Positions 38,928-58,681 of a DNA stretch of 64,000 nt are shown piece by piece (the first letter of the stretch is position 1; each line of letters starts with the position of its first letter). The position numbers and the translations under genes are program-made. The notes beneath the pieces were generated by a model. The model worked only from the letters and a program-made list of their open reading frames with translations. It was not told the DNA's origin and did not search any database. The stretch is from Candidatus Magasanikiibacteriota bacterium (GTDB lineage: Bacteria > Patescibacteriota > Patescibacteriia > Magasanikbacterales > GWA2-37-8): contig JBAYGI010000003.1 in the NCBI GenBank assembly GCA_041666745.1, forward strand, positions 12,782 through 76,781. Direction: 5' to 3'.

Positions 38928-39509
38928 CTACAGATTGTGGCGAGCGCGGAACTTCGTGACGGCCAGAGGGATGATCCGTTCGACGTGCGCCGGAACCGTG
39001 GGATCTGGCAGGTCATCGACTGGGAACCACCCGCGCGTGTCGCTGACTTCTGGAGCGCGTTCCAAGTCGGTGAGAAACACGAAGGAGATCCCCGCGCCTC
39101 TGCCTTCGTCGCCGATCTTGTACCAGCCGAAGCCGGCGTCGCCGACGCGAACGATACTGACAGGCACCCCATATTCCCTGGAGAGTCGGAATTTTGGAGT
39201 GTTCTCATCGTCGCTTGGACGAAGAGCGGTGCCTGGCACATGCCAGTAACCGGACCAGTCGGGATCGCTATCGTCCCGCTTGATCATGAAGACCTCGACC
39301 TTCCCCGAGTCATCATTGAATCGTAGCGACACGCTTTCCCAGTACACGTTCCACGAGGACCGTGCTACCGCCTTGTACAGTTCTGTCCCCAGTGGCCTTG
39401 TCGGATCAACGCGTCGGAGCACTTCTGCCACGAACTCCCTATATTCTGCGCTTTCTGGATCGAAGTCCTTGAGCACTTCAAGGACATCGTTCAAAATTTC
39501 AGTCATCAC
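38928..39509 (-). CDS. High-GC (~58%) foreign ORF encoding a degenerate Nudix-fold-like hypothetical protein
   Basis: 193 aa; WHVPGTALRPSDDENTPKFRLSREYGV resembles a Nudix box lacking the catalytic glutamates; AGGAGTGG SD; composition unlike host. Confidence 0.5.
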   Translation of the reverse strand: MMTEILNDVLEVLKDFDPESAEYREFVAEVLRRVDPTRPLGTELYKAVARSSWNVYWESVSLRFNDDSGKVEVFMIKRDDSDPDWSGYWHVPGTALRPSDDENTPKFRLSREYGVPVSIVRVGDAGFGWYKIGDEGRGAGISFVFLTDLERAPEVSDTRGWFPVDDLPDPTVPAHVERIIPLAVTKFRARHNL

Positions 39510-39569: not shown

Positions 39570-39605
39570 ATAACTATAACACAAAACAGACATTCTGTCA
39601 AATTG
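39570..39605 (-). promoter_or_regulatory. Near-consensus sigma70 promoter (TTGACA-N17-TATAGT) on minus strand driving the high-GC ORF
   Basis: Reverse complement of 39570-39605 reads aatTTGACAgaatgtctgttttgtgtTATAGTtat; lies immediately 3' of the giant surface protein gene. Confidence 0.45.
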
Positions 39606-42600
39606 GCCATTGAAACCAAAGTGTCGGATCCCAAAATGTTTTAACATTCATAAAATTTCTTGAGTCCATATTATTGAGATGTAGGATTGGTAACGGATCC
39701 ACACTACCCGACAAAATACCGGTATCCAAATTCATCAAATTGGTATTATCCAGTGTCAGCTCCCCACTAAATATTTTTATTCCATTGGTGTTGGCCACAT
39801 TTGGTTTTGATCCGATATAACCAATCGAACTATTGTTTATTACTACAGTTGAATTATTTATTTCCAAAGTATTTCCAGACGGTTTACTATCCAACAACTG
39901 ACAATTTTGCATATCCAGTTTGCCGTTTTTTACTGTCACCATCCCCTGATAGGTATCGTTCCAAATCGTACCACGCCCGCCGGAGATGTTGGCGTTTTTA
40001 AAACCACCTTTACCACCATCAAAAATAATTCTACCCCAATAATTAATTATTAATGGTTGAATCGCCGAGATATTTATTGGATCATTTTCTGTTCCATTTA
40101 AATTTAAAATACCTTTTACCAAAATATTTGAATACTCCGGCATTTTAATATTGGTTCCGGCGGAGACATTTAGAGTTATGTTTGGTTCAACGGTGATATT
40201 TTGCCAAGTCATCGGAATATCTTTTTCAACAGTGAGATCAGTAGAAATCACCGCTTGGTCTATAGCGACATTATTTGCAATATTATTACTAAAATTTATT
40301 TGTGACATTTTTGGCCAAATATTTTTTACATAAACCGGACCATTGATATTTGTAAAATTATTTAAGCCAATATTTTCCAATTCCAAACTGCCGTCATAAT
40401 TTTCTATTGCCAACACACCATTTTTAAAATCCGTATTTTTAACAGTCGAAGTTGTTTTGGATAAATAAATATTTGTGTCCCCGCTATCACTGAAAATAGA
40501 ATTATTAATATTTAATCCCGCACTGACAGCCCGCACTGCTTGAGAAACAAATGGGTCATAAGTATTGGCACCCGGAGCTTTGAAAGCCTTACCGGCATAG
40601 CGCATATCCAAACCGGACAAATTGGCGGTTGAACTGGCATACAACAATAGCCCCTGCCAATCTTTGGCCAAAGCACTTCCCGATCGAGTACCGATAATAG
40701 TTTTGTACCCTTCCGATTCAAAATTTACATCTCTGCCGGATGTCATAATCACTCGACTGTCGCTGGTGCCATTTATATTCAAATTCCCTTTGATATCAAT
40801 TTTGGAATCCGCATAATAAGTTTTTATTACCACTCCCGAATCAATGTTGAAAGTTTTACCAACCGGAATTTCATAATAAGTTAAAATATACGGATAAATA
40901 CTTTTTTTCAAAGTGCGATCGGTTTCAACCTGACGACTCTTGAGAACTATCGATCCAAAATTTGATTGCTTTGGTGAACCGTTGAGTGGAAGATCATCAC
41001 CACCGCCATCTACTTTGCCTGTGAATCTCGGACCTTGGTTTGTTTGCCAATTGGTTGAATTATTTCCGGGTAAACGTGAATTTATTTTTTCCATCGAAGA
41101 ATAAGTAACGTCGGAACCGGCAAACCAAGTACTACTACAATCCACTTCATCCACGAGCTGATTGTTTCCGTCCAACAAACGCAGGCGCTCACCACTATTT
41201 TTTAATGCACCGGAATAAATAATGTCTGCCGGAATTTCATTGACTGTGCGATCGTCGGTGCGTTCAAATAAATAATAACCATTTTTGGGAATGATACGAT
41301 TGACGATTTTTCCAATACTAATTTCTTTATCTCCGATCATAAGTTTCCACCACTTGGAGGTGTTGGTGGCGGAAAATAAATTTATATCTTGATCGGTGTT
41401 GTTGTATAACTCGATAAACTCATCTTGGTCGGTGACCGAGGACGTGCCTGCCCAGGCGATTTCGTTTATTACTACGTCGGGGGCGGGTGGAACTGGATCT
41501 GGGATTTCGGGAGTGGATGTGGGGGTGGTGGAGGTTGGGGTGGTGGAGGTTGGGATTGTGGAAGTTGGGGTTGTATCTGGGATGGTTGAGGTGGGAATTT
41601 CGATAGGTGTGGTTGTGGGGGTGATTGGGGTGGTGGTGGGTATTTCTATGGTGGTAGTTGGAATGTCGATTGTGGAGGTGGGAGTTTCGATTGTGGAAGT
41701 AGCAACAGGTACGGTTGTTGTAGGAACAGGTGTTTGAATAACTACGACTGGATCAGCAACTGGGATTATGGTCGGATTGGATCCGCCACCGCCTCCACCT
41801 CCACCGGTGGAATGTTCTGGTGGTTGAATTGGAGTTGGATTATTTATTGGTGGGTTTGGTGTTGGTTGGGGTGGTGATATGACTGGTTGTGTAGTTGGAG
41901 GTGTGTTTGGTGCTGGATTTTGGTTTACTGGAGGTGTATTGTTTGGGGTATTGTCGGACACGGGATTGTTGGTATTTTCTCCGGATGTAATTTGATCATT
42001 TGGTGTTTGAGAATTGGCAGAATCATAAATATTTTCCGCTACTGAAATTATGTCTCCAACTCCAGTGTCTATCAAGCCACCTAAGCCAATTCTAAAAAAT
42101 GGCAGTTTTTCGGTTTCATTTTTTTGTACATCGGAGAGGAATAATTTTATGGTGTTGGCGCTGTAACTGACGGCTTTGGGGAGGAGGTGGGAGGCGTAGT
42201 CTTGGAGGATCACACTGTTGTTTACCATGTTTTTATCTTCTTTCCAATCAGTACCACCTATCAAATGACTTTTTATTAAATTACTATCACTATCTTTAGT
42301 CGAAGCAACATATAGATCAACTGCATTATTAAAATTATACGGATCCAATTTAGAAATTTTATGTACACTATACTTACTATTTTCAATCGTCTTGTCACTA
42401 TAAAAATTACTATTTGAATATTTAGCCGCATCATTAAAAATATCTTCTAGACTATTTTTATCAGCTACCTCACTTTTAATATTTTTACTTATTGTACTCC
42501 AATTATTTTTTACATAACTTTCATACGAGTCCGGTGGAATAGCATGAATACTGTCACGTGTATGAGCTGGCACCAACATATCAGATACCAGGTGAATATT

Positions 42601-43023
42601 GTGACCTAATTCTTTAAAAGCCAACTCTTTGTTGCCTTTACGAAAATCATTTATTGCTCTTTGCCAACTATTATCACCCAACGAAAAAGCGGTTTGTTTG
42701 TCATAATCTTTTGCCCAAACTTTGGCGGAATCATTTTGTTTTCCAAAAAATAATCCGCGATTGTATATCGGATCATAAAAATGATTTAACCATCTGGTCG
42801 GTTGATCCTCCTCTACTGTGCCGGTTTTGATCCAACCAAGTTGTTCAACTGAAATTTTTTGACTGTTGTTTTGATTGTATTGTTTCACGGCCAAATCGGC
42901 AATTCCGGGATGGGCAACGTTGGAATCATAACAAAAAACTTGGCGCACGAACGCCAAGTTTAAAAAAATAACAAAAATAATAAAAACAAATAATTGAAAA
43001 CACTTATCCCCTCCCTTTTTCAT
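39598..43023 (-). CDS. Giant secreted multidomain protein: zinc-dependent phospholipase C / P1-nuclease-like domain, Pro/Thr-rich linker, Gly9 run, lamin-tail domain, right-handed beta-helix repeats
   Basis: 1141 aa; signal peptide; HFYDP and HNIHLVSDMLVPAH (zinc PLC/S1-P1 motifs); VVINEIAWAGTS...DEFIELYN (LTD); NxxG-type beta-helix repeats C-terminally. Confidence 0.75.
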   Translation of the reverse strand: MKKGGDKCFQLFVFIIFVIFLNLAFVRQVFCYDSNVAHPGIADLAVKQYNQNNSQKISVEQLGWIKTGTVEEDQPTRWLNHFYDPIYNRGLFFGKQNDSAKVWAKDYDKQTAFSLGDNSWQRAINDFRKGNKELAFKELGHNIHLVSDMLVPAHTRDSIHAIPPDSYESYVKNNWSTISKNIKSEVADKNSLEDIFNDAAKYSNSNFYSDKTIENSKYSVHKISKLDPYNFNNAVDLYVASTKDSDSNLIKSHLIGGTDWKEDKNMVNNSVILQDYASHLLPKAVSYSANTIKLFLSDVQKNETEKLPFFRIGLGGLIDTGVGDIISVAENIYDSANSQTPNDQITSGENTNNPVSDNTPNNTPPVNQNPAPNTPPTTQPVISPPQPTPNPPINNPTPIQPPEHSTGGGGGGGGSNPTIIPVADPVVVIQTPVPTTTVPVATSTIETPTSTIDIPTTTIEIPTTTPITPTTTPIEIPTSTIPDTTPTSTIPTSTTPTSTTPTSTPEIPDPVPPAPDVVINEIAWAGTSSVTDQDEFIELYNNTDQDINLFSATNTSKWWKLMIGDKEISIGKIVNRIIPKNGYYLFERTDDRTVNEIPADIIYSGALKNSGERLRLLDGNNQLVDEVDCSSTWFAGSDVTYSSMEKINSRLPGNNSTNWQTNQGPRFTGKVDGGGDDLPLNGSPKQSNFGSIVLKSRQVETDRTLKKSIYPYILTYYEIPVGKTFNIDSGVVIKTYYADSKIDIKGNLNINGTSDSRVIMTSGRDVNFESEGYKTIIGTRSGSALAKDWQGLLLYASSTANLSGLDMRYAGKAFKAPGANTYDPFVSQAVRAVSAGLNINNSIFSDSGDTNIYLSKTTSTVKNTDFKNGVLAIENYDGSLELENIGLNNFTNINGPVYVKNIWPKMSQINFSNNIANNVAIDQAVISTDLTVEKDIPMTWQNITVEPNITLNVSAGTNIKMPEYSNILVKGILNLNGTENDPINISAIQPLIINYWGRIIFDGGKGGFKNANISGGRGTIWNDTYQGMVTVKNGKLDMQNCQLLDSKPSGNTLEINNSTVVINNSSIGYIGSKPNVANTNGIKIFSGELTLDNTNLMNLDTGILSGSVDPLPILHLNNMDSRNFMNVKTFWDPTLWFQWPI
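41400..41960. repeat. Coding low-complexity tandem repeats (Pro/Thr/Ile-rich linker)
   Basis: Repeated gtggaggttgggg-type units on the + strand (complement encodes PTTT/IPTST repeats). Confidence 0.7.
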
Positions 43024-43066
43024 ATATTATATTGTTTATCGTAAAAATTAAGTTATAAAAAAATAA

Positions 43067-43570
43067 TTATAAAGATTTAATATACCAAATACCAGACGTG
43101 GTTTTTATAAATTCCATTATGTTTCCAACTTTTTTACCTTTAGAAGTACCCGCATAAACATATGTCGCCTCCCAACTATTTTCAGTATCCTTGTGAATTT
43201 CTTTTATATCATTCATCATCACCGGTAATAATCCCTTGTTTTTAACTCCAATTAAAAATTCTTTCATCCCCACCTTATCCCCCTCCCGAAAACAACAATC
43301 CACCGCCTCATCAAAATCCTCTTTTTTCAATGCCGCCAAAAATTTCTGATGAGTTTCTTCCGGTGTCTGGATGGTAGGCGCTAAATTTTCCGGATTTTGG
43401 GAATACAACGCCTCCAACTGCGCCGGACTATAATCTGAAAACGGAAAATCCGGCCTTGCGGTACCGGATAAAACTCTGGCTTGTTTTTTTAAAAACCAAC
43501 CATAGGCGCTAAAAATGGCCATTAAAACTAAAATTACAACCACCAAACACACTACAATTTTCTTGCGCAT
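43067..43570 (-). CDS. Secreted or membrane-anchored hypothetical protein
   Basis: 167 aa; N-terminal hydrophobic signal/anchor. Confidence 0.4.
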   Translation of the reverse strand: MRKKIVVCLVVVILVLMAIFSAYGWFLKKQARVLSGTARPDFPFSDYSPAQLEALYSQNPENLAPTIQTPEETHQKFLAALKKEDFDEAVDCCFREGDKVGMKEFLIGVKNKGLLPVMMNDIKEIHKDTENSWEATYVYAGTSKGKKVGNIMEFIKTTSGIWYIKSL

Positions 43571-53314: not shown

Positions 53315-55978
53315 TTATTTTATAAATAGCATTATACTTGCGTCGCCGATAACTTTTTGAAATTTGGAATTCAAAATTTTTAGCACCTGAACATTATCAT
53401 AGTCTTGAATAACAAAAACTTTTATCTGTTGGTCGCTATTAATATAATCTAACAGCCGATTAAATTGATATATAAAAAACAGATCAATTGCTGATGGTAA
53501 ATCAATTGCACACACGGTATTTGTTTCGTCGTAATACATTCCATCATATGCACCTGCCAAAATTAAAATACGTTCTCCAGGAATTGTATGTTGTTTGATA
53601 AAATTAATATTTTTTACAACATCTAAATTGTCCGGTAAAGTAAGATCCTGAAATGTTCTGTGCGTATTGTAGATAAAAAATTTTGTATTATAAGCCATAT
53701 CAAATACTGGTAGAACCAAAACATAGGCTAGCGCAATAATAACAAAATATAGGCCAACATTTATTTTAGTTCCAAGAGCGGTATAATTTCGAAGTGCGAT
53801 AACAAGATCATCAAGAAACATTGGTAGAATTAAAAATACAACAAATGATGGAGCAACTAATGTCAAACTGTGCGAACGACCTTCAAAATAAGCAAACAAT
53901 CCAGTGCCTATTATCGATAAAATAAAATATAGCGGCCCTTTTATATTTTCTGATTTCTGTACCAAACATATTATCGAAAATAAAAGAGAGATAAGATAGA
54001 CTAAAACGACCAGATACCATATGTGGGGGAAAATTGGCAATGGAATTAAGAAATAACCCGCATAAAACATTTTTGAATATTGAAAAAATAAATTAATATT
54101 AGGTATACTGCCAGAATAAAATATGTAATAAAAAGAAAATAAGGACAAACCCAACAACAAAGAAGCAACACCGATTAAAATGTGTTTGCAAATTGATTTA
54201 TATATATCTGCTAATTTTTTGCTTTCCCTTTTCCAAACTTCTAGATAAAGTAAAAATAGATTCCACGAAATAAAAACGACTATGCCGGAATCAAAGTTCC
54301 AAAATATTGCTAGAGTGGCTATAAAATGACCCAATGCGTATAAATATCGGTTGGGCTTTTTTAAATATTTAACTGAAATAAATAATATAGCGGATGGAAA
54401 TAACATTCGTATAGGCAAATACTGAAGATACTGATTGTAGATTCCATCTTTGAACATGTGTGAAAAGTTTGAATAGCCCAAAACACTTATAATTCCTAAC
54501 AAAGAAAAAATTTTTCTTTTGATACTACTATTCAAAAAATAAAATAAGCACAAATAACAAATCAATACTAAAATACACATCACAAACGTAAATTTAGTTA
54601 CTCCAACACCTATTAAATTAAAGACTGGTTTTAAAATAAGTGGAAATAAGCCATATAGACTTGGTACTTGTTGAATCAATATTTTACCATGGGCAATTTG
54701 AGTTTGAGGAAAATAGACTGGATCAAAATGATAATAATCTAAATTTCCTGCTAATGATGAAATATTAAAAAAAACTGTAAACACTAAAAGTATCACAAAT
54801 TCGATAGTTAACACTAAGGAAAGTATTTTTTGATATCTATCTTTAACCATCAAATGGACAACTAAAGGAAAAACTATGAAAGAATATGCTACAAATCCAA
54901 AAATAGAACTCGTGAGTGAAAACTTCGTATAAAAAAAGTCGCTCATTGACAAGCCGAGATAAATGAGTGAAGGCAGTCCTAAGATGGTAACTAAGGCTAA
55001 AAAAGAATTGACTTTACCAATTATTTTTTTTGATAAATTTTTTAATAATTTATTGGATAAATAATAATTAATTATTAAAAAAAACGGAGAAGCCAAGACA
55101 CACAATAAATATTGAAACTGCTCTATCGGCTTAGGAATAAAAGCAATGATGATAGAATCTAAATATATTTTTTTAGCTTGACTGATAATATTCGAAATGT
55201 CAGGATGAAAAAAAGTATTGATTAAATACGCCAAAAAAAATTCCGAAGTAATTGTAAAAAATATTGTAAGATATACTGCTTGATAATTATGCTGTTTTTC
55301 GTTCTTTTCTAAACCTTCTTCAGTAAACGTACCAATTCTAATATAGAATAAATAATATAAATATATTAAAAATAACCAAATAGAAATAGCCAACGACGGC
55401 CAAATTGCTTGCCCTAAAGTATTGCTGGTCAAATAACTGTCCCCTTTCCAATTTATTAATGATTTAAAAAAAACGTTTTTTACTGGAATTTTACTTCTTT
55501 CCAGAGACAATATGAAAGGTGAGGCTAAAATTATATTATTTTCTCCAATTCCTACATATCCAAAAGTAGACGACGTAACGTCTATCCACTTTTCCAACAA
55601 ATCACTTCGTGTATATTGAAAATCTTTTTCCCCTATAGATACAAGGACATCCTTAATTTTAGACAGATGAGAAGCATCAATTACCAATGCTACTCTTTCA
55701 ACAAAAACACCGCCGATCTCCCATGTGCTTGTACTAACAAAATTCATTCCTGTGTTATTGTGAGCTCTTGCCAATTTAGCTACAGGATTAAAATATCCTT
55801 TATTCTCACCGCTTGCATTTATAGTTACTTTAATATTTGCCAATGGTTCACGACTACTTACCGTCATAATACCTTTACCAGCGGTGATAATTACTAAAAA
55901 GAAAAAAATTAATAATGGAAAAAAAATAATATTTTTTTTGAAAATTTCAAACAAATTATTCATTTTAAAATCTTTCAT
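53315..55978 (-). CDS. Large polytopic membrane protein, paralog A (candidate GT-C-type glycan polymerase/transferase)
   Basis: 887 aa; N-terminal anchor plus ~150-aa extracytoplasmic domain, more than 14 TM helices, C-terminal soluble domain; motif FPQTQIAHGK..QQVPSLYGLFPLILKPVF shared with paralog B. Confidence 0.6.
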   Translation of the reverse strand: MKDFKMNNLFEIFKKNIIFFPLLIFFFLVIITAGKGIMTVSSREPLANIKVTINASGENKGYFNPVAKLARAHNNTGMNFVSTSTWEIGGVFVERVALVIDASHLSKIKDVLVSIGEKDFQYTRSDLLEKWIDVTSSTFGYVGIGENNIILASPFILSLERSKIPVKNVFFKSLINWKGDSYLTSNTLGQAIWPSLAISIWLFLIYLYYLFYIRIGTFTEEGLEKNEKQHNYQAVYLTIFFTITSEFFLAYLINTFFHPDISNIISQAKKIYLDSIIIAFIPKPIEQFQYLLCVLASPFFLIINYYLSNKLLKNLSKKIIGKVNSFLALVTILGLPSLIYLGLSMSDFFYTKFSLTSSIFGFVAYSFIVFPLVVHLMVKDRYQKILSLVLTIEFVILLVFTVFFNISSLAGNLDYYHFDPVYFPQTQIAHGKILIQQVPSLYGLFPLILKPVFNLIGVGVTKFTFVMCILVLICYLCLFYFLNSSIKRKIFSLLGIISVLGYSNFSHMFKDGIYNQYLQYLPIRMLFPSAILFISVKYLKKPNRYLYALGHFIATLAIFWNFDSGIVVFISWNLFLLYLEVWKRESKKLADIYKSICKHILIGVASLLLGLSLFSFYYIFYSGSIPNINLFFQYSKMFYAGYFLIPLPIFPHIWYLVVLVYLISLLFSIICLVQKSENIKGPLYFILSIIGTGLFAYFEGRSHSLTLVAPSFVVFLILPMFLDDLVIALRNYTALGTKINVGLYFVIIALAYVLVLPVFDMAYNTKFFIYNTHRTFQDLTLPDNLDVVKNINFIKQHTIPGERILILAGAYDGMYYDETNTVCAIDLPSAIDLFFIYQFNRLLDYINSDQQIKVFVIQDYDNVQVLKILNSKFQKVIGDASIMLFIK

Positions 55979-56011
55979 AATATTATTAAAAATATTTTTA
56001 CTATTTAAAAA

Positions 56012-58681
56012 TTAGTTTTCAAATAATATCATACCCGTACCGGTGACTTCTTTTTTAAATTTGGTATTTAAAATTTTTAAAATTTTTTCGTCGTTGTAAT
56101 CAGAATTAACGAAAATCTTTGATTTATTACCAGCGTCGAGATAATTCAATAGCAAATTATACTGATATTTAAAATTCCAATCCACTACAGATGGAAAATC
56201 AATTGCGCAGACTGTGTTTGTTTCACCATAATAAGTAGCGTCATAAGCGGCTTCTGGGGTAGCTAGTATTAAAATTCGCTCACCCGCTATTGTGTGATGT
56301 TTAATAAAATTAATATTTTTATTGATATTCTGATTAACTGGGTAATACAATTCCTTGTATGATTGGATGGAATTACTAATAAAATATTTAATATTTACTA
56401 TAATATTTACTGACGGTAATAACAAGAAAAATAATAGGATGGAGGTTATAAAACACGAATATACCACAATGTACTTATCAGTTTTTTTAAGAGAATACAC
56501 AATTGGTAAGTAATCATCCAACAAAAGAGCTAGTATTAAAATTGAAACAAAAGAAGAATCAAACAAAATAGCATTGAGTGCTCTACCTTGAAAATAAATA
56601 AATGAACCAAATCCTACAATAGACAGGATAAAATATAGTGGCGCTTTACTGTCATCCTTGTTTTTAATGACACAGATAAGAGACATCAACAACGACAACG
56701 TATAGATAAAAATTATTAAATGCCACATGTTTGGAAAAATCGGCAATGGATTCATACTAAAACCATTGTAAAACTCTTTTGAATATTGAAAAAACAAACT
56801 AATATCCGGCAAACCACCAAAGTGATATATATAATAAAATGACAACAACACCAAACCAGTCAACAAGAAACCGATACCACGTAACACGTGCTTACAAACG
56901 GACTTTATTACATCTAAAGACTTTTTATCTCCCCTTTTCAGTATTTCTAAATAAAGCAAAAATAAATTCCACGATATAAAAACGACTAAACCGGAATCAA
57001 AATTCCAAAATATTGCCACTGTTGCAACAAAATGACCTATACCATACAAACTCCTATTGGGATTTTTTAAATATTTAGCAGAAATAAACAATATTAGACT
57101 AGGAAATATTATGCGAATAGGCAGATGCTGGTAATTGATCTTATAGTTGAGACCAGCGGCCATTTGAGGAAGATGAAAATAATTTATAATATTTAACACG
57201 CCTAATAGTGGAATAATTTTATTATTAGTGGAAATTTTTAAAAATAATAAAATGAGAAAATAACAGCTGAAGATTATCACACCCATGACAATAGTAAATT
57301 TAAAAATTCCTAAACCTATAATGTCAAAAACAGGTTTTAAAATAAGCGGAAACAAACCATACAAACTAGGTACTTGCTGAATTATAGTTTTACCTTGAGC
57401 AATTTGTGTCTGGGGAAAATAGACAGCATCAAGATGGTGGGCATCATAACTTCCAACTGGTGACGATATAGCAAAAATAACAACAGAAAACAAAACAAAG
57501 GCCAATAAAACAGACAGAGTATTATAAACCCATCCCTGATATTTATTTTTTATAAGAAAATAAGAAAAAATAGGAAAAATTAAAAAAGCATAAACAGAAA
57601 ATCCAAAAACAGAATTTAATAAAGGAGGTACATAAAGAAAATTCCACATCGATAAAGATAAATAAATATAGGATGGCAAACCAATAAAAGTGCCAACTAC
57701 TAATAAAATATTTATTATATGCAATTTGTTGAGTAAAAATCGATTAACTATTTTTACGGATAAATAATAATTCACTAATAAAAGAAATGGTAAAAACATG
57801 ACACCTAGGATATATTGCAGGTTCTCTGTTGGTTTAGGAGTAAAACTTAAAACTATCTTATCTAGATATATTTCTTTGGCTTGATTAATTATATTTAAAA
57901 TGTTTGGATGATAAGAAAGTTTAATTAAACACATCAATAAATATTCGCTAATAAACGTAAAAAATAGAACGACATAGAATACAGTAAAATCAAATTGTAT
58001 TTGTTTAATATTTCGCCCTTCACTGGTCGGCGATAATGTTTCTGTATATACCAAAACAATAATATAAAAAAGGTACAGGAAAAAAGAGATAATAATAGAT
58101 GGCAACACCGCTTGTAGAACAGTGTTGTATGTTAAATATTTATCACCACGCCAGTTAATTATGGAACTAAAAAAATCTTTCTTTACAGGGATTTTGCTAC
58201 GTTCTAAAGCAAGAGCATATGGTGATGCTAAAGTGATTGCACTGTTGTCCATAGCAACTGAACCAAATGATTCAGAAGTGACTCTTTCCCATTGAGAGAG
58301 CAACTCATCTTGACTATAAATAAAATTTTTATCATCAATAGCGACAGTAACTTCCTTTATTTCTGATAATTGAGACCGGCTGAACGCTAAGGCGATTCGT
58401 TTTACAAAAACTGCGTTGACTTGCCAAGTGTTGACACCAGTTTTAATCAATTTAATGTTATTACCGGCCCTAACTAGTTTTGCCGCCACATCAAAATCAA
58501 CTGGTTTATTATCGTTAGTATTAATAATTACCTGTACATTTGCTAACGGCTCACGACTGCTGACTATTTTTAAACATTTACCGACAGAAACTACCGACCA
58601 GAAAAAAATAAATAACAGAAAAAACAATTTTAAATTTTTTTTAAAATATAATATTATTTTCTGTAAAATATTTCTATCCAT
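56012..58681 (-). CDS. Large polytopic membrane protein, paralog B (tandem duplicate of 53315-55978)
   Basis: 889 aa; same architecture and multiple conserved blocks (SSREPLAN, SLERSKIPVK, HxDxVYFPQTQIA). Confidence 0.6.
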   Translation of the reverse strand: MDRNILQKIILYFKKNLKLFFLLFIFFWSVVSVGKCLKIVSSREPLANVQVIINTNDNKPVDFDVAAKLVRAGNNIKLIKTGVNTWQVNAVFVKRIALAFSRSQLSEIKEVTVAIDDKNFIYSQDELLSQWERVTSESFGSVAMDNSAITLASPYALALERSKIPVKKDFFSSIINWRGDKYLTYNTVLQAVLPSIIISFFLYLFYIIVLVYTETLSPTSEGRNIKQIQFDFTVFYVVLFFTFISEYLLMCLIKLSYHPNILNIINQAKEIYLDKIVLSFTPKPTENLQYILGVMFLPFLLLVNYYLSVKIVNRFLLNKLHIINILLVVGTFIGLPSYIYLSLSMWNFLYVPPLLNSVFGFSVYAFLIFPIFSYFLIKNKYQGWVYNTLSVLLAFVLFSVVIFAISSPVGSYDAHHLDAVYFPQTQIAQGKTIIQQVPSLYGLFPLILKPVFDIIGLGIFKFTIVMGVIIFSCYFLILLFLKISTNNKIIPLLGVLNIINYFHLPQMAAGLNYKINYQHLPIRIIFPSLILFISAKYLKNPNRSLYGIGHFVATVAIFWNFDSGLVVFISWNLFLLYLEILKRGDKKSLDVIKSVCKHVLRGIGFLLTGLVLLSFYYIYHFGGLPDISLFFQYSKEFYNGFSMNPLPIFPNMWHLIIFIYTLSLLMSLICVIKNKDDSKAPLYFILSIVGFGSFIYFQGRALNAILFDSSFVSILILALLLDDYLPIVYSLKKTDKYIVVYSCFITSILLFFLLLPSVNIIVNIKYFISNSIQSYKELYYPVNQNINKNINFIKHHTIAGERILILATPEAAYDATYYGETNTVCAIDFPSVVDWNFKYQYNLLLNYLDAGNKSKIFVNSDYNDEKILKILNTKFKKEVTGTGMILFEN

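Follow-up and report, generated by a model that had tools for sequence, protein, structure and literature searches.

In the window analysed here, a stretch of 64,000 nucleotides from contig JBAYGI010000003.1 of Candidatus Magasanikiibacteriota bacterium, a large multidomain protein with a predicted signal peptide is encoded by an open reading frame (ORF) on the reverse strand (39598..43023), directly downstream of a small gene whose product carries a predicted membrane anchor, and we propose that the two genes form a surface module typical of the Candidate Phyla Radiation (CPR), or Patescibacteria. The N-terminal domain of the large protein is, judging from family alignments and from a structural model, a remote member of the bacterial zinc-dependent phospholipase C (PLC) family. 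Sequence and model together make it likely that this protein is secreted and active as a trinuclear-zinc phosphodiesterase, and that its partner is obligate. The best explanation for the locus as a whole, which we put forward at somewhat less than an even chance, is that a secreted PLC-type enzyme acts on foreign phospholipid together with an anchored partner protein. Phospholipid as the substrate is a tentative assignment, slightly favoured over nucleic acid or nucleotides.

The CPR bacteria represent a large share of bacterial diversity, lack the synthesis of both lipids and nucleotides and presumably live at the expense of other cells; we know of almost no molecules through which they interact with those cells. 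What looked like an odd ORF turns out to belong to a defined and widespread unit, which occurs in hundreds of genomes at species level and is everywhere labelled “hypothetical.” Be the substrate host phospholipid or nucleic acid, the module is a strong candidate for a role in nutrient scavenging or host attack, and it offers a concrete handle on how CPR bacteria obtain lipids or nucleotides. It is not a new kind of system, and the single-protein oddity is ordinary within the CPR.

Evidence for a Zinc Phospholipase C Fold in the N-Terminal Domain

The ORF encodes 1141 amino acids plus a stop codon, coincides with a gene called on the source contig, a metagenome contig of 144,881 bp, and lies far beyond what chance would produce, its homologues numbering in the thousands. 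The initial annotation of this locus had recognised a PLC/P1-nuclease-like domain in its N-terminal region through the motifs HFYDP and HxxHxxxDxxxPxH. Both are found where they had been reported, at residue 81 and, as HNIHLVSDMLVPAH, at residues 141-154, together with the two lamin-tail motifs quoted alongside them, INEIAWAG at residue 519 and DEFIELYN at residue 534. The Pfam search suggested with that annotation bore out one part of it in the window protein, the lamin-tail domain (LTD), which reached the gathering score and was the sole domain found when the whole protein and three segments of it were scanned; the PLC and beta-helix models were left unmatched, and the NCBIfam scan of the protein gave no match.

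The relationship to PLCs emerges from the relatives of the protein, from profiles and from the model. A phmmer search of the PDB sequences gave a Listeria PLC (8cqm_A, E = 7e-4) as the sole relevant match. When the relatives were scanned singly, the model of zinc-dependent PLCs, PF00882, was matched by 6 of 9, 27 of 101 and 20 of 31 of them (best 2.7e-07), the two larger sets amounting to 47 of 132 scanned relatives, and the S1-P1 nuclease model, PF02265, was matched by none of the 101 and none of the 31. Family profiles run against the PDB gave matches limited to bacterial PLCs (8cqm, 1ah7 and 2fgn, with E of about 2e-4) and no S1/P1 chain at E ≤ 1. In these alignments HFYDP falls on His69 of the Bacillus cereus enzyme, the pattern HxxxDxxxxxH on His118, Asp122 and His128, and the next glutamate on Glu146. 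The analysis also shows that most members of this family, which runs to thousands, escape the Pfam PLC model.

An AlphaFold model of the full-length protein, built on 31 full-length relatives, reached a mean predicted local distance difference test (pLDDT) score of 80, with about 90 for residues 35-335, less than 50 for residues 337-510 and more than 90 for the remainder; an earlier prediction of the N-domain from 9 sequences had a pLDDT of 53 and was too poor for use. In Foldseek comparisons of the model with the PDB, the top 12 matches are all alpha-toxins or PLCs (1olp, 8cqm, 1ah7, 1ca1; probability 1.00), and the target-normalised template-modelling (TM) scores of 0.62-0.70 against single-domain PLCs correspond to the all-alpha PLC fold. 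S1/P1 nuclease structures are missing from the top 50 fold matches. The domain is placed in the PLC branch rather than in that of the S1/P1 nucleases because no relative matches the S1-P1 model and no S1/P1 structure is found among these 50. The PLC side of the initial assignment is therefore retained, and membership of the S1/P1 nucleases was rejected on the same two grounds and on the profile searches of the PDB.

The predicted trinuclear-zinc phosphodiesterase core of the PLC/PF00882 clade comprises residues 32-215 (42379..42930, on the reverse strand like all other parts of the module) and is marked out by its fold, by the conservation of the putative ligands and by constraint, 66 of its 184 positions (36%) being at least 80% conserved across 31 divergent proteins. 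It is continued by a family-specific extension, residues 216-337 (42013..42378), which AlphaFold models, with good pLDDT, as a three-stranded beta element (223-256) followed by two long helices (270-298 and 314-337). A profile of this segment recovers the extension in nearly all relatives, and a helix motif within it, LLPKAVxYSAxxIKLF, is conserved.

Putative Zinc Ligands, Signal Peptide and Mature N-Terminus

The nine classical ligands of B. cereus PLC are the backbone N and O of Trp1 with His14, Asp55, His69, His118, Asp122, His128, His142 and Glu146; in this enzyme, as in P1 nuclease, Trp1 binds zinc via its backbone after processing. Counterparts of eight of the nine, the aromatic +1 residue included, are present in the window family. 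In the alignment of 101 sequences, counting only those with a residue at the column, the conserved positions are H38 (97/97), D73 (98/99), H81 (100/100), H144 (97/97), D148 (96/97), H154 (95/96), H160 (91/94) and E168 (86/88). The initial annotation had let its reading of the domain stand or fall with the fold and with the zinc ligands, and at 97% conservation or more in all eight positions, in a domain for which the PLC fold is supported, that reading survives. The invariant His160, six residues past H154, is proposed from the alignment as a stand-in for His142 of the PLCs, and the family as a whole points to a variant zinc site. In the ligand set proposed here, the backbone amine and carbonyl of Tyr32, together with H38, D73, H81, H144, D148, H154, H160 and E168, would bind three zinc ions.

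The participation of Tyr32 depends on the processing of the predicted signal peptide (residues 1-31; 42931..43023), which starts with MKKGGDK, continues with a hydrophobic core and ends in VFC before the tyrosine; in the model, residues 5-25 form a helix and residues 24-31 are of low confidence. Position 32 is aromatic in 97/97 relatives (Y in 77, W in 8, H in 7 and F in 5), and position 31 is Ala in 68/97, Ser in 13, Gly in 8 and Cys in 3, so that the family displays a cleavage-site pattern with V/A/S/L/T/I at -3, A/S/G/C at -1 and Y/W/H/F at +1. Positions 29 and 31 of this pattern fit the -3/-1 rule. A signal-peptidase cut is predicted between Cys31 and Tyr32, and Tyr32 would be the mature N-terminal residue of an enzyme exported via Sec.

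Secretion, as initially supposed, is thus supported by a predicted N-terminal signal peptide. The supposed cell-surface tether was not found in the protein itself, which has no lipobox and, at the C-terminus, no transmembrane or sorting signal. The polypeptide ends in ...FWDPTLWFQWPI without a hydrophobic segment, and anchoring as a lipoprotein through Cys31 was rejected since position 31 is mostly Ala in the family and no cysteine is conserved there. By these signals the protein is without an anchor of its own once the signal peptide has been removed, and any tethering would have to come from the membrane-anchored upstream partner.

In comparison with the well-known zinc PLCs, namely B. cereus PC-PLC (1AH7), Listeria monocytogenes PlcB (8CQM) and the N-domain of the Clostridium perfringens and absonum alpha-toxins (1CA1 and 1OLP), the window family has in common the all-alpha fold, HFYDP, the residues aligned with H118, D122, H128 and E146, secretion and an aromatic residue as the predicted mature N-terminus. 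It differs, however, in that this residue is usually Tyr instead of Trp, and in that His142 is missing at its position and a different invariant His, H160, is found. Furthermore, the window protein adds the extension of about 120 residues, with its beta element and two helices, lacks a PLAT/C2-like membrane-binding domain, is fused to a Pro/Thr linker, an LTD and a beta-helix, and is accompanied by an upstream partner gene.

The Upstream Partner Gene

The partner gene (43067..43570), which the initial annotation had not mentioned, encodes 167 amino acids, with a predicted N-terminal transmembrane anchor at residues ~5-25 and a probable extracytoplasmic NTF2-like/DUF4878-like domain, as indicated by homology, adjacency and profiles, and ends 43 nt upstream of the start codon of the large gene. 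In the loci of two relatives, whose surroundings are wholly different, a small unannotated gene occupies the same upstream position; these genes are homologous to the window partner (35% identity, E = 4e-26) and the two copies to each other (E = 6e-10).

The linkage was counted at 80 reference loci, with 79 PLC-like ORFs having at least 600 bp of upstream DNA. A partner homologue is found directly upstream and on the same strand at 75 of these 79 ORFs, with a gap of -62 to +131 bp (median 10 bp, 29 pairs overlapping); these values are approximate, since each ORF was taken to begin with its first possible start codon. Three further PLC-like ORFs have a partner within 700 bp and none is without one. 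When neighbouring ORFs were clustered, the enzyme (83 loci) and the partner (80 loci) were the only universally linked genes, the next families being miscellaneous and occurring in at most 16 loci. Because the partner adjoins the enzyme gene in 75 of 79 loci, we regard the conserved unit as one of two genes. Among the most distant, non-CPR relatives the partner is not clearly adjacent. As side observations, one locus (L071:638-1801) has two tandem partner copies ahead of the enzyme gene, and four others (L010, L032, L044 and L051) show two partner matches each, possibly split genes.

The window copy of the partner does not match PF12870 (DUF4878), which is matched by 16 of 65 members of the partner family (best 9.2e-06), and the family profile gives weak NTF2-like matches in the PDB (3k7c, the PBP5 N-domain and a de novo NTF2, with E of 0.01-0.1). 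Of 88 homologues, 82 have a hydrophobic segment at the N-terminus, and according to the positive-inside rule the partner is N-in/C-out, with the globular part outward, in 51 of 65 members. Secreted, membrane-active enzymes of phospholipase type encoded beside a small dedicated protein are familiar from plcH-plcR of Pseudomonas aeruginosa and from lipase effector/immunity pairs; those pairs belong, to our knowledge, to unrelated families, and here the small gene lies upstream and its product is membrane-anchored and NTF2-like.

Linker, Lamin-Tail Domain and Beta-Helix

Behind the N-domain extends a disordered Pro/Thr/Ile-rich linker (residues 338-510; 41494..42012), delimited by its composition, its low pLDDT and its tandem repeats. 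The composition claimed for it initially is borne out, T, P and I dominating with 45, 41 and 18 of the 175 residues from 336 to 510, and the run of nine glycines attributed to it has to be corrected to eight (residues 407-414). The corresponding DNA contains tandem repeats of 15, 21 and 42 nt at 41513-41697, which code for a Thr/Ser/Pro-rich part. Some database relatives (P0001, P0002, P0009 and P0010) are “partial” genes that end at contig ends, and assemblies broken by these linker repeats are probably the cause.

The LTD, an Ig-like domain (residues 511-650; 41074..41493), had also been named in the initial annotation and is well supported. PF00932 is matched at residues 512-628 with 34.5 bits against a gathering cut-off of 34.3, and 30 of the 31 full-length relatives match it too (best 1.9e-15); the modelled fold, with a pLDDT of about 92, corresponds to lamin B1 (3umn_B and 3jt0_B, probability 1.00, TM 0.55-0.65). 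The domain is acidic, with 13 K+R against 22 D+E.

The remainder of the protein (residues 651-1141; 39601..41073) is modelled as a right-handed parallel beta-helix, in agreement with the beta-helix repeats initially recognised there. The model is all-beta, with short strands and a pLDDT of about 93, and its Foldseek matches in the PDB and BFVD are exclusively right-handed beta-helix proteins, namely PL6 alginate lyases, the epimerases AlgG/AlgE, the adhesin PfbA and phage tailspikes and depolymerases, with probabilities up to 0.96-1.00 and low TM scores of 0.12-0.29. For the window C-terminal 490 residues the Pfam models PF13229 and PF05048 give only noise at E ≤ 10. PF13229 is matched weakly by 6 of the 31 relatives (best 1.4e-3), and in some relatives of the wider family Beta_helix/NosD matches are strong and well over threshold. 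A profile search of the PDB with the C-terminal domain found no sequence relative.

Among the 48 conserved positions of the beta-helix the only charged ones are D765 and D788, and the conserved acidic/basic catalytic cluster of lyases or hydrolases was not found; a conserved aromatic motif, NM..RNF.NV..FW.P..W, closes the domain. Because conserved catalytic or charged residues are missing, we read the beta-helix as a module for binding or targeting and not as a second enzyme, a reading further backed by the fold matches to PfbA and to tailspikes. The window domain belongs to the same fold class as the PL6 lyases, AlgG/AlgE, pneumococcal PfbA and the phage tailspikes, but differs from them in its low TM scores, in having no sequence relative in the PDB and in lacking a conserved charged cluster, and it is probably neither a lyase nor a hydrolase.

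Family Size, Taxonomic Distribution and Domain Architectures

A word-indexed search with residues 1-345 retrieved 8 relatives only. A profile made from the first relatives led to 100, nearly all from Patescibacteria and nearly all named “hypothetical protein,” and an exhaustive profile search gave 5,766 cluster representatives at E ≤ 1e-3 and 951 at E ≤ 1e-30, many of them 1,000-1,500 amino acids long. In species-representative genomes, 230 loci encode a relative, and those with a name are almost all CPR (Magasanikbacteria, Paceibacterota, Falkowbacteria, Azambacteria, Vogelbacteria, Giovannonibacteria, Jorgensenbacteria and others). The closest relatives in reference genomes are 78% identical in the N-domain, and the nearest come from Candidatus Magasanikbacteria and other CPR, which agrees with the reduced-genome, episymbiotic setting supposed at the outset. 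In our literature search we came across no paper on this family, on LTDs in Patescibacteria or on PF00882 in CPR. Many records of metagenome-assembled genomes (MAGs) titled “uncultured Gammaproteobacteria bacterium” (L004, L007, L008, L012, L014 and others; some “Saccharibacteria”) carry the module with at most 78% identity to Magasanikbacteria genes, and these titles look like placeholder or wrong labels.

An LTD like that of the window protein occurs in 98 of 242 fetched proteins and its C-terminal domain in 46 of them; P0010, a fragment from another MAG, has the parts in the same order. Among 83 reference ORFs, the window type (PLC domain with extension, LTD and C-terminal domain) is the commonest with 35, followed by 21 in which PLC domain, extension and LTD are combined with a different or missing C-terminus and by 10 in which a staphylococcal-nuclease (SNase) domain is inserted after the zinc domain. 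The window architecture is therefore the commonest form of a large, uncharacterised CPR-wide family, and the “giant” protein singled out by the initial annotation is no oddity within it. Many members carry other C-terminal domains in place of the beta-helix. The SNase domain (PF00565, up to 3e-19) lies between zinc domain and LTD in P0203, P0234, P0239, P0188, P0241, P0197, P0165, P0134 and others; P0134 has it together with a C-terminal domain of the window type, and in P0234 it is joined by a purple-acid-phosphatase N-terminal (FN3-like) domain and by a region that matches NosD/Beta_helix strongly.

Proposed Function and Alternative Explanations

In the mechanism that we propose, the enzyme would cleave phosphodiester bonds outside the cell, most likely removing the phospho-head-group from phospholipids of a host or neighbour and giving diacylglycerol. 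This PLC reaction would damage the target membrane and feed lipid to an organism unable to make its own. The long, flexible Pro/Thr linker would give the enzyme reach away from the LTD and the beta-helix, and the latter would most likely bind a surface glycan or envelope polymer and thus serve for targeting. The partner would be held in the membrane of its own cell by the N-terminal helix, with the NTF2-like domain outward, and would most likely either dock the unanchored enzyme or shield the producer’s own membrane. The NTF2-like fold typically encloses hydrophobic ligands, and a bolder version of this proposal would see in the module a dedicated CPR lipid-taking device, in which an enzyme aimed by the beta-helix strips host head-groups, the partner captures diacylglycerol or lipid and delivers it to the symbiont membrane, or protects that membrane, and an RNA hairpin early in the enzyme gene (see below) sets the ratio of partner to enzyme. 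Taken in full, this version is unlikely; if true, it would be the first molecular mechanism of lipid acquisition in bacteria unable to make lipids.

Phospholipid is favoured as the substrate because all similarity in sequence and fold is to PLCs, because the partner is membrane-anchored and because CPR bacteria without lipid synthesis recycle the lipids of other bacteria, a secreted phospholipase having been proposed for Vampirococcus (PMC8080830). Several observations weigh against the proposal as a whole. Neither the complete protein nor the isolated N-domain matches PF00882 even at E ≤ 10, and most members of the family fall below the Pfam threshold. Identity to solved PLCs is only 13-18%, so that substrate specificity cannot be transferred from them. 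The column of PLC His142 holds a conserved glycine (Gly164) in the family, and that H160 replaces this ligand is something we infer. The loci used to count the linkage with the partner had been selected through the enzyme gene. Finally, three findings point to nucleic acid: the SNase domain inserted right after the zinc domain in 10 of 83 loci (about 12%) and 12 of 242 relatives; the LTD, a type of domain that typically accompanies extracellular nucleases and phosphoesterases, such as ExeM (PMC6085458) and a large Izemoplasma nuclease (PMC8289736); and the distant, non-CPR relative P0091 (L084:350-4950), located directly downstream, and on the same strand, of genes for purine nucleoside phosphorylase and adenine deaminase, a hint that nucleoside salvage is the task of at least some proteins in the wider family.

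These three findings support the view that the zinc domain acts outside the cell as a nuclease and/or 3'-nucleotidase, feeding nucleotide salvage in an organism unable to make nucleotides. Such an enzyme would degrade environmental or host DNA or RNA, or dephosphorylate 3'-nucleotides freed by SNase-type nucleases, and would be held in a nucleic-acid-rich matrix by the LTD and the beta-helix. PLCs and S1/P1 enzymes do have one fold and the same trinuclear zinc site, with an N-terminal aromatic residue and His and Asp as ligands, and the surface 3'-nucleotidase/nuclease of trypanosomatids, of the PF02265 family, is an example of extracellular scavenging in organisms unable to make purines. The nuclease-like domains with which the window family keeps company, SNase in relatives and LTD, add to this likeness, and the invariant R77 and R156, close to the ligands, could bind phosphate, in parallel with Arg48 of P1 nuclease. 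Against this stands, however, the search record: no S1-P1 match in 132 relatives, as opposed to 47 that match PF00882; only PLCs in the profile searches of the PDB at E ≤ 1; no S1/P1 structure in the top 50 folds; and HFYDP itself, which is the PLC form of the motif. The acidic LTD is an unlikely DNA binder, an outward, membrane-anchored partner would better suit a membrane-active enzyme, and the NUDIX gene next to the enzyme gene is probably a foreign insertion that stands outside the module. The comparison with Shewanella ExeM, likewise a secreted or envelope-associated multidomain phosphoesterase with an LTD (PMC6085458), is also incomplete, since its catalytic domain is of the endonuclease/exonuclease/phosphatase type and not of the PLC fold, its LTD is N-terminal, and it has neither a beta-helix nor an NTF2-like partner. 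Altogether, we consider a role in nucleotide scavenging doubtful, yet it is the most serious of the alternatives.

A phosphodiesterase for envelope glycopolymers, such as teichoic-acid-like polyol phosphates or phosphodiester-linked capsule or wall polysaccharides, seems very unlikely. On this view the zinc site would cleave the phosphodiester links of a polysaccharide recognised by the beta-helix, so as to breach the host wall, scavenge phosphate or remodel the cell’s own envelope. The resemblance of the beta-helix to polysaccharide lyases, epimerases and phage capsule depolymerases fits this idea, and so does the location of the window module among genes for nucleotide sugars, glycosyltransferases, FtsW/RodA and more glycosyltransferases, with a large peptidoglycan-binding protein and a Wzy-like ligase among the semi-recurrent neighbours. 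This context is nevertheless lost beyond close relatives, where only the partner gene is kept; the beta-helix has no conserved catalytic or charged residues; many members have exchanged it for other C-terminal domains; and we know of no member of the PLC/P1 superfamily that acts on envelope glycopolymers.

A protein that serves only for host attachment, mainly as an adhesin or a fibre on the surface, with a catalytically dead PLC-like domain as a binding module, is extremely improbable. In its favour are the abundance in CPR genomes of very large surface proteins with a presumed role in attachment (PMC8080830), the adhesin-like combination of beta-helix, Ig-like domain and long linker, and the presence of PfbA among the fold matches. 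Against it, putative metal ligands conserved at 97% or more and 36% of core positions conserved at 80% or more are the signature of an active enzyme and not of a decayed one.

A Terminator-Like Hairpin Within the Enzyme Gene

The enzyme gene contains a terminator-like hairpin on its coding strand, with an 11-bp stem and a 4-nt loop (42936..42961, or to 42930 with the T6 run that follows), at codons ~21-31, that is, in the C-terminal part of the signal peptide. Hairpins at this site, differing in stem sequence and register, are found in 27 of 69 family genes, whereas the remaining sequence of these genes would lead one to expect about 0.01 per gene; T-runs are accompanied by a hairpin in 27 of 46 cases at the site and in 129 of 1,981 (6.5%) elsewhere in these genes (odds ratio 20). 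The feature is concentrated in a Magasanikbacteria-like clade (23 of 36). In the register group of the window gene, 96% of the cells are paired and 5 of the 11 pairs show double (compensatory) changes, which supports covariation. RNAalifold found no consensus across 25 hairpin segments, since their registers differ between lineages, and when the region was scanned for promoter and terminator consensus sequences the results were overall no better than for shuffles. The hairpin may attenuate transcription between partner and enzyme, or may be a translational pause element; in genomes as compact as these it is a minor regulatory oddity.

Near the same end of the gene (42990-43066 on the reverse strand), the ATG start codon has no Shine-Dalgarno-like sequence upstream, the 43-nt intergenic stretch is almost pure A/T, and a GGAGG-like run is found just past the start codon, in codons 3-5.

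Surroundings of the Locus

On its downstream side the enzyme gene is separated from the gene for L27 by an ORF for a NUDIX protein (38928..39509, reverse strand; PF00293, 22 bits). Its GC content is 57.7% compared with 36.7% for the window, its compositional borders are sharp, it has a strong sigma-70-like promoter match at 39601-39573, and no counterpart was found in 82 related loci. Its foreign composition, its absence from related loci and the promoter-like site of its own led us to reject it as a functional partner; it was probably inserted recently through horizontal transfer. The polysaccharide genes around the module were likewise rejected as a clue to the function of the module, because what flanks it changes from genome to genome, the partner being the one gene linked to the enzyme throughout.

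Within the 64-kb window, no paralogue of the large gene was found, and Rfam and tRNA scans gave no matches. Among related loci, an IS200-like (Y1 transposase) ORF lies upstream of the module in 16 (for example L051:4716-5402), a large PG_binding_1 protein is encoded near it in 12 and a Wzy_C/TPR protein in 11. Elsewhere in the window, two tandem paralogous ORFs of 887 and 889 amino acids (53315-58681, reverse strand), 49% identical and without a Pfam match, are located in the part of lowest GC content (28.8%), flanked by genes for family-2 glycosyltransferases.

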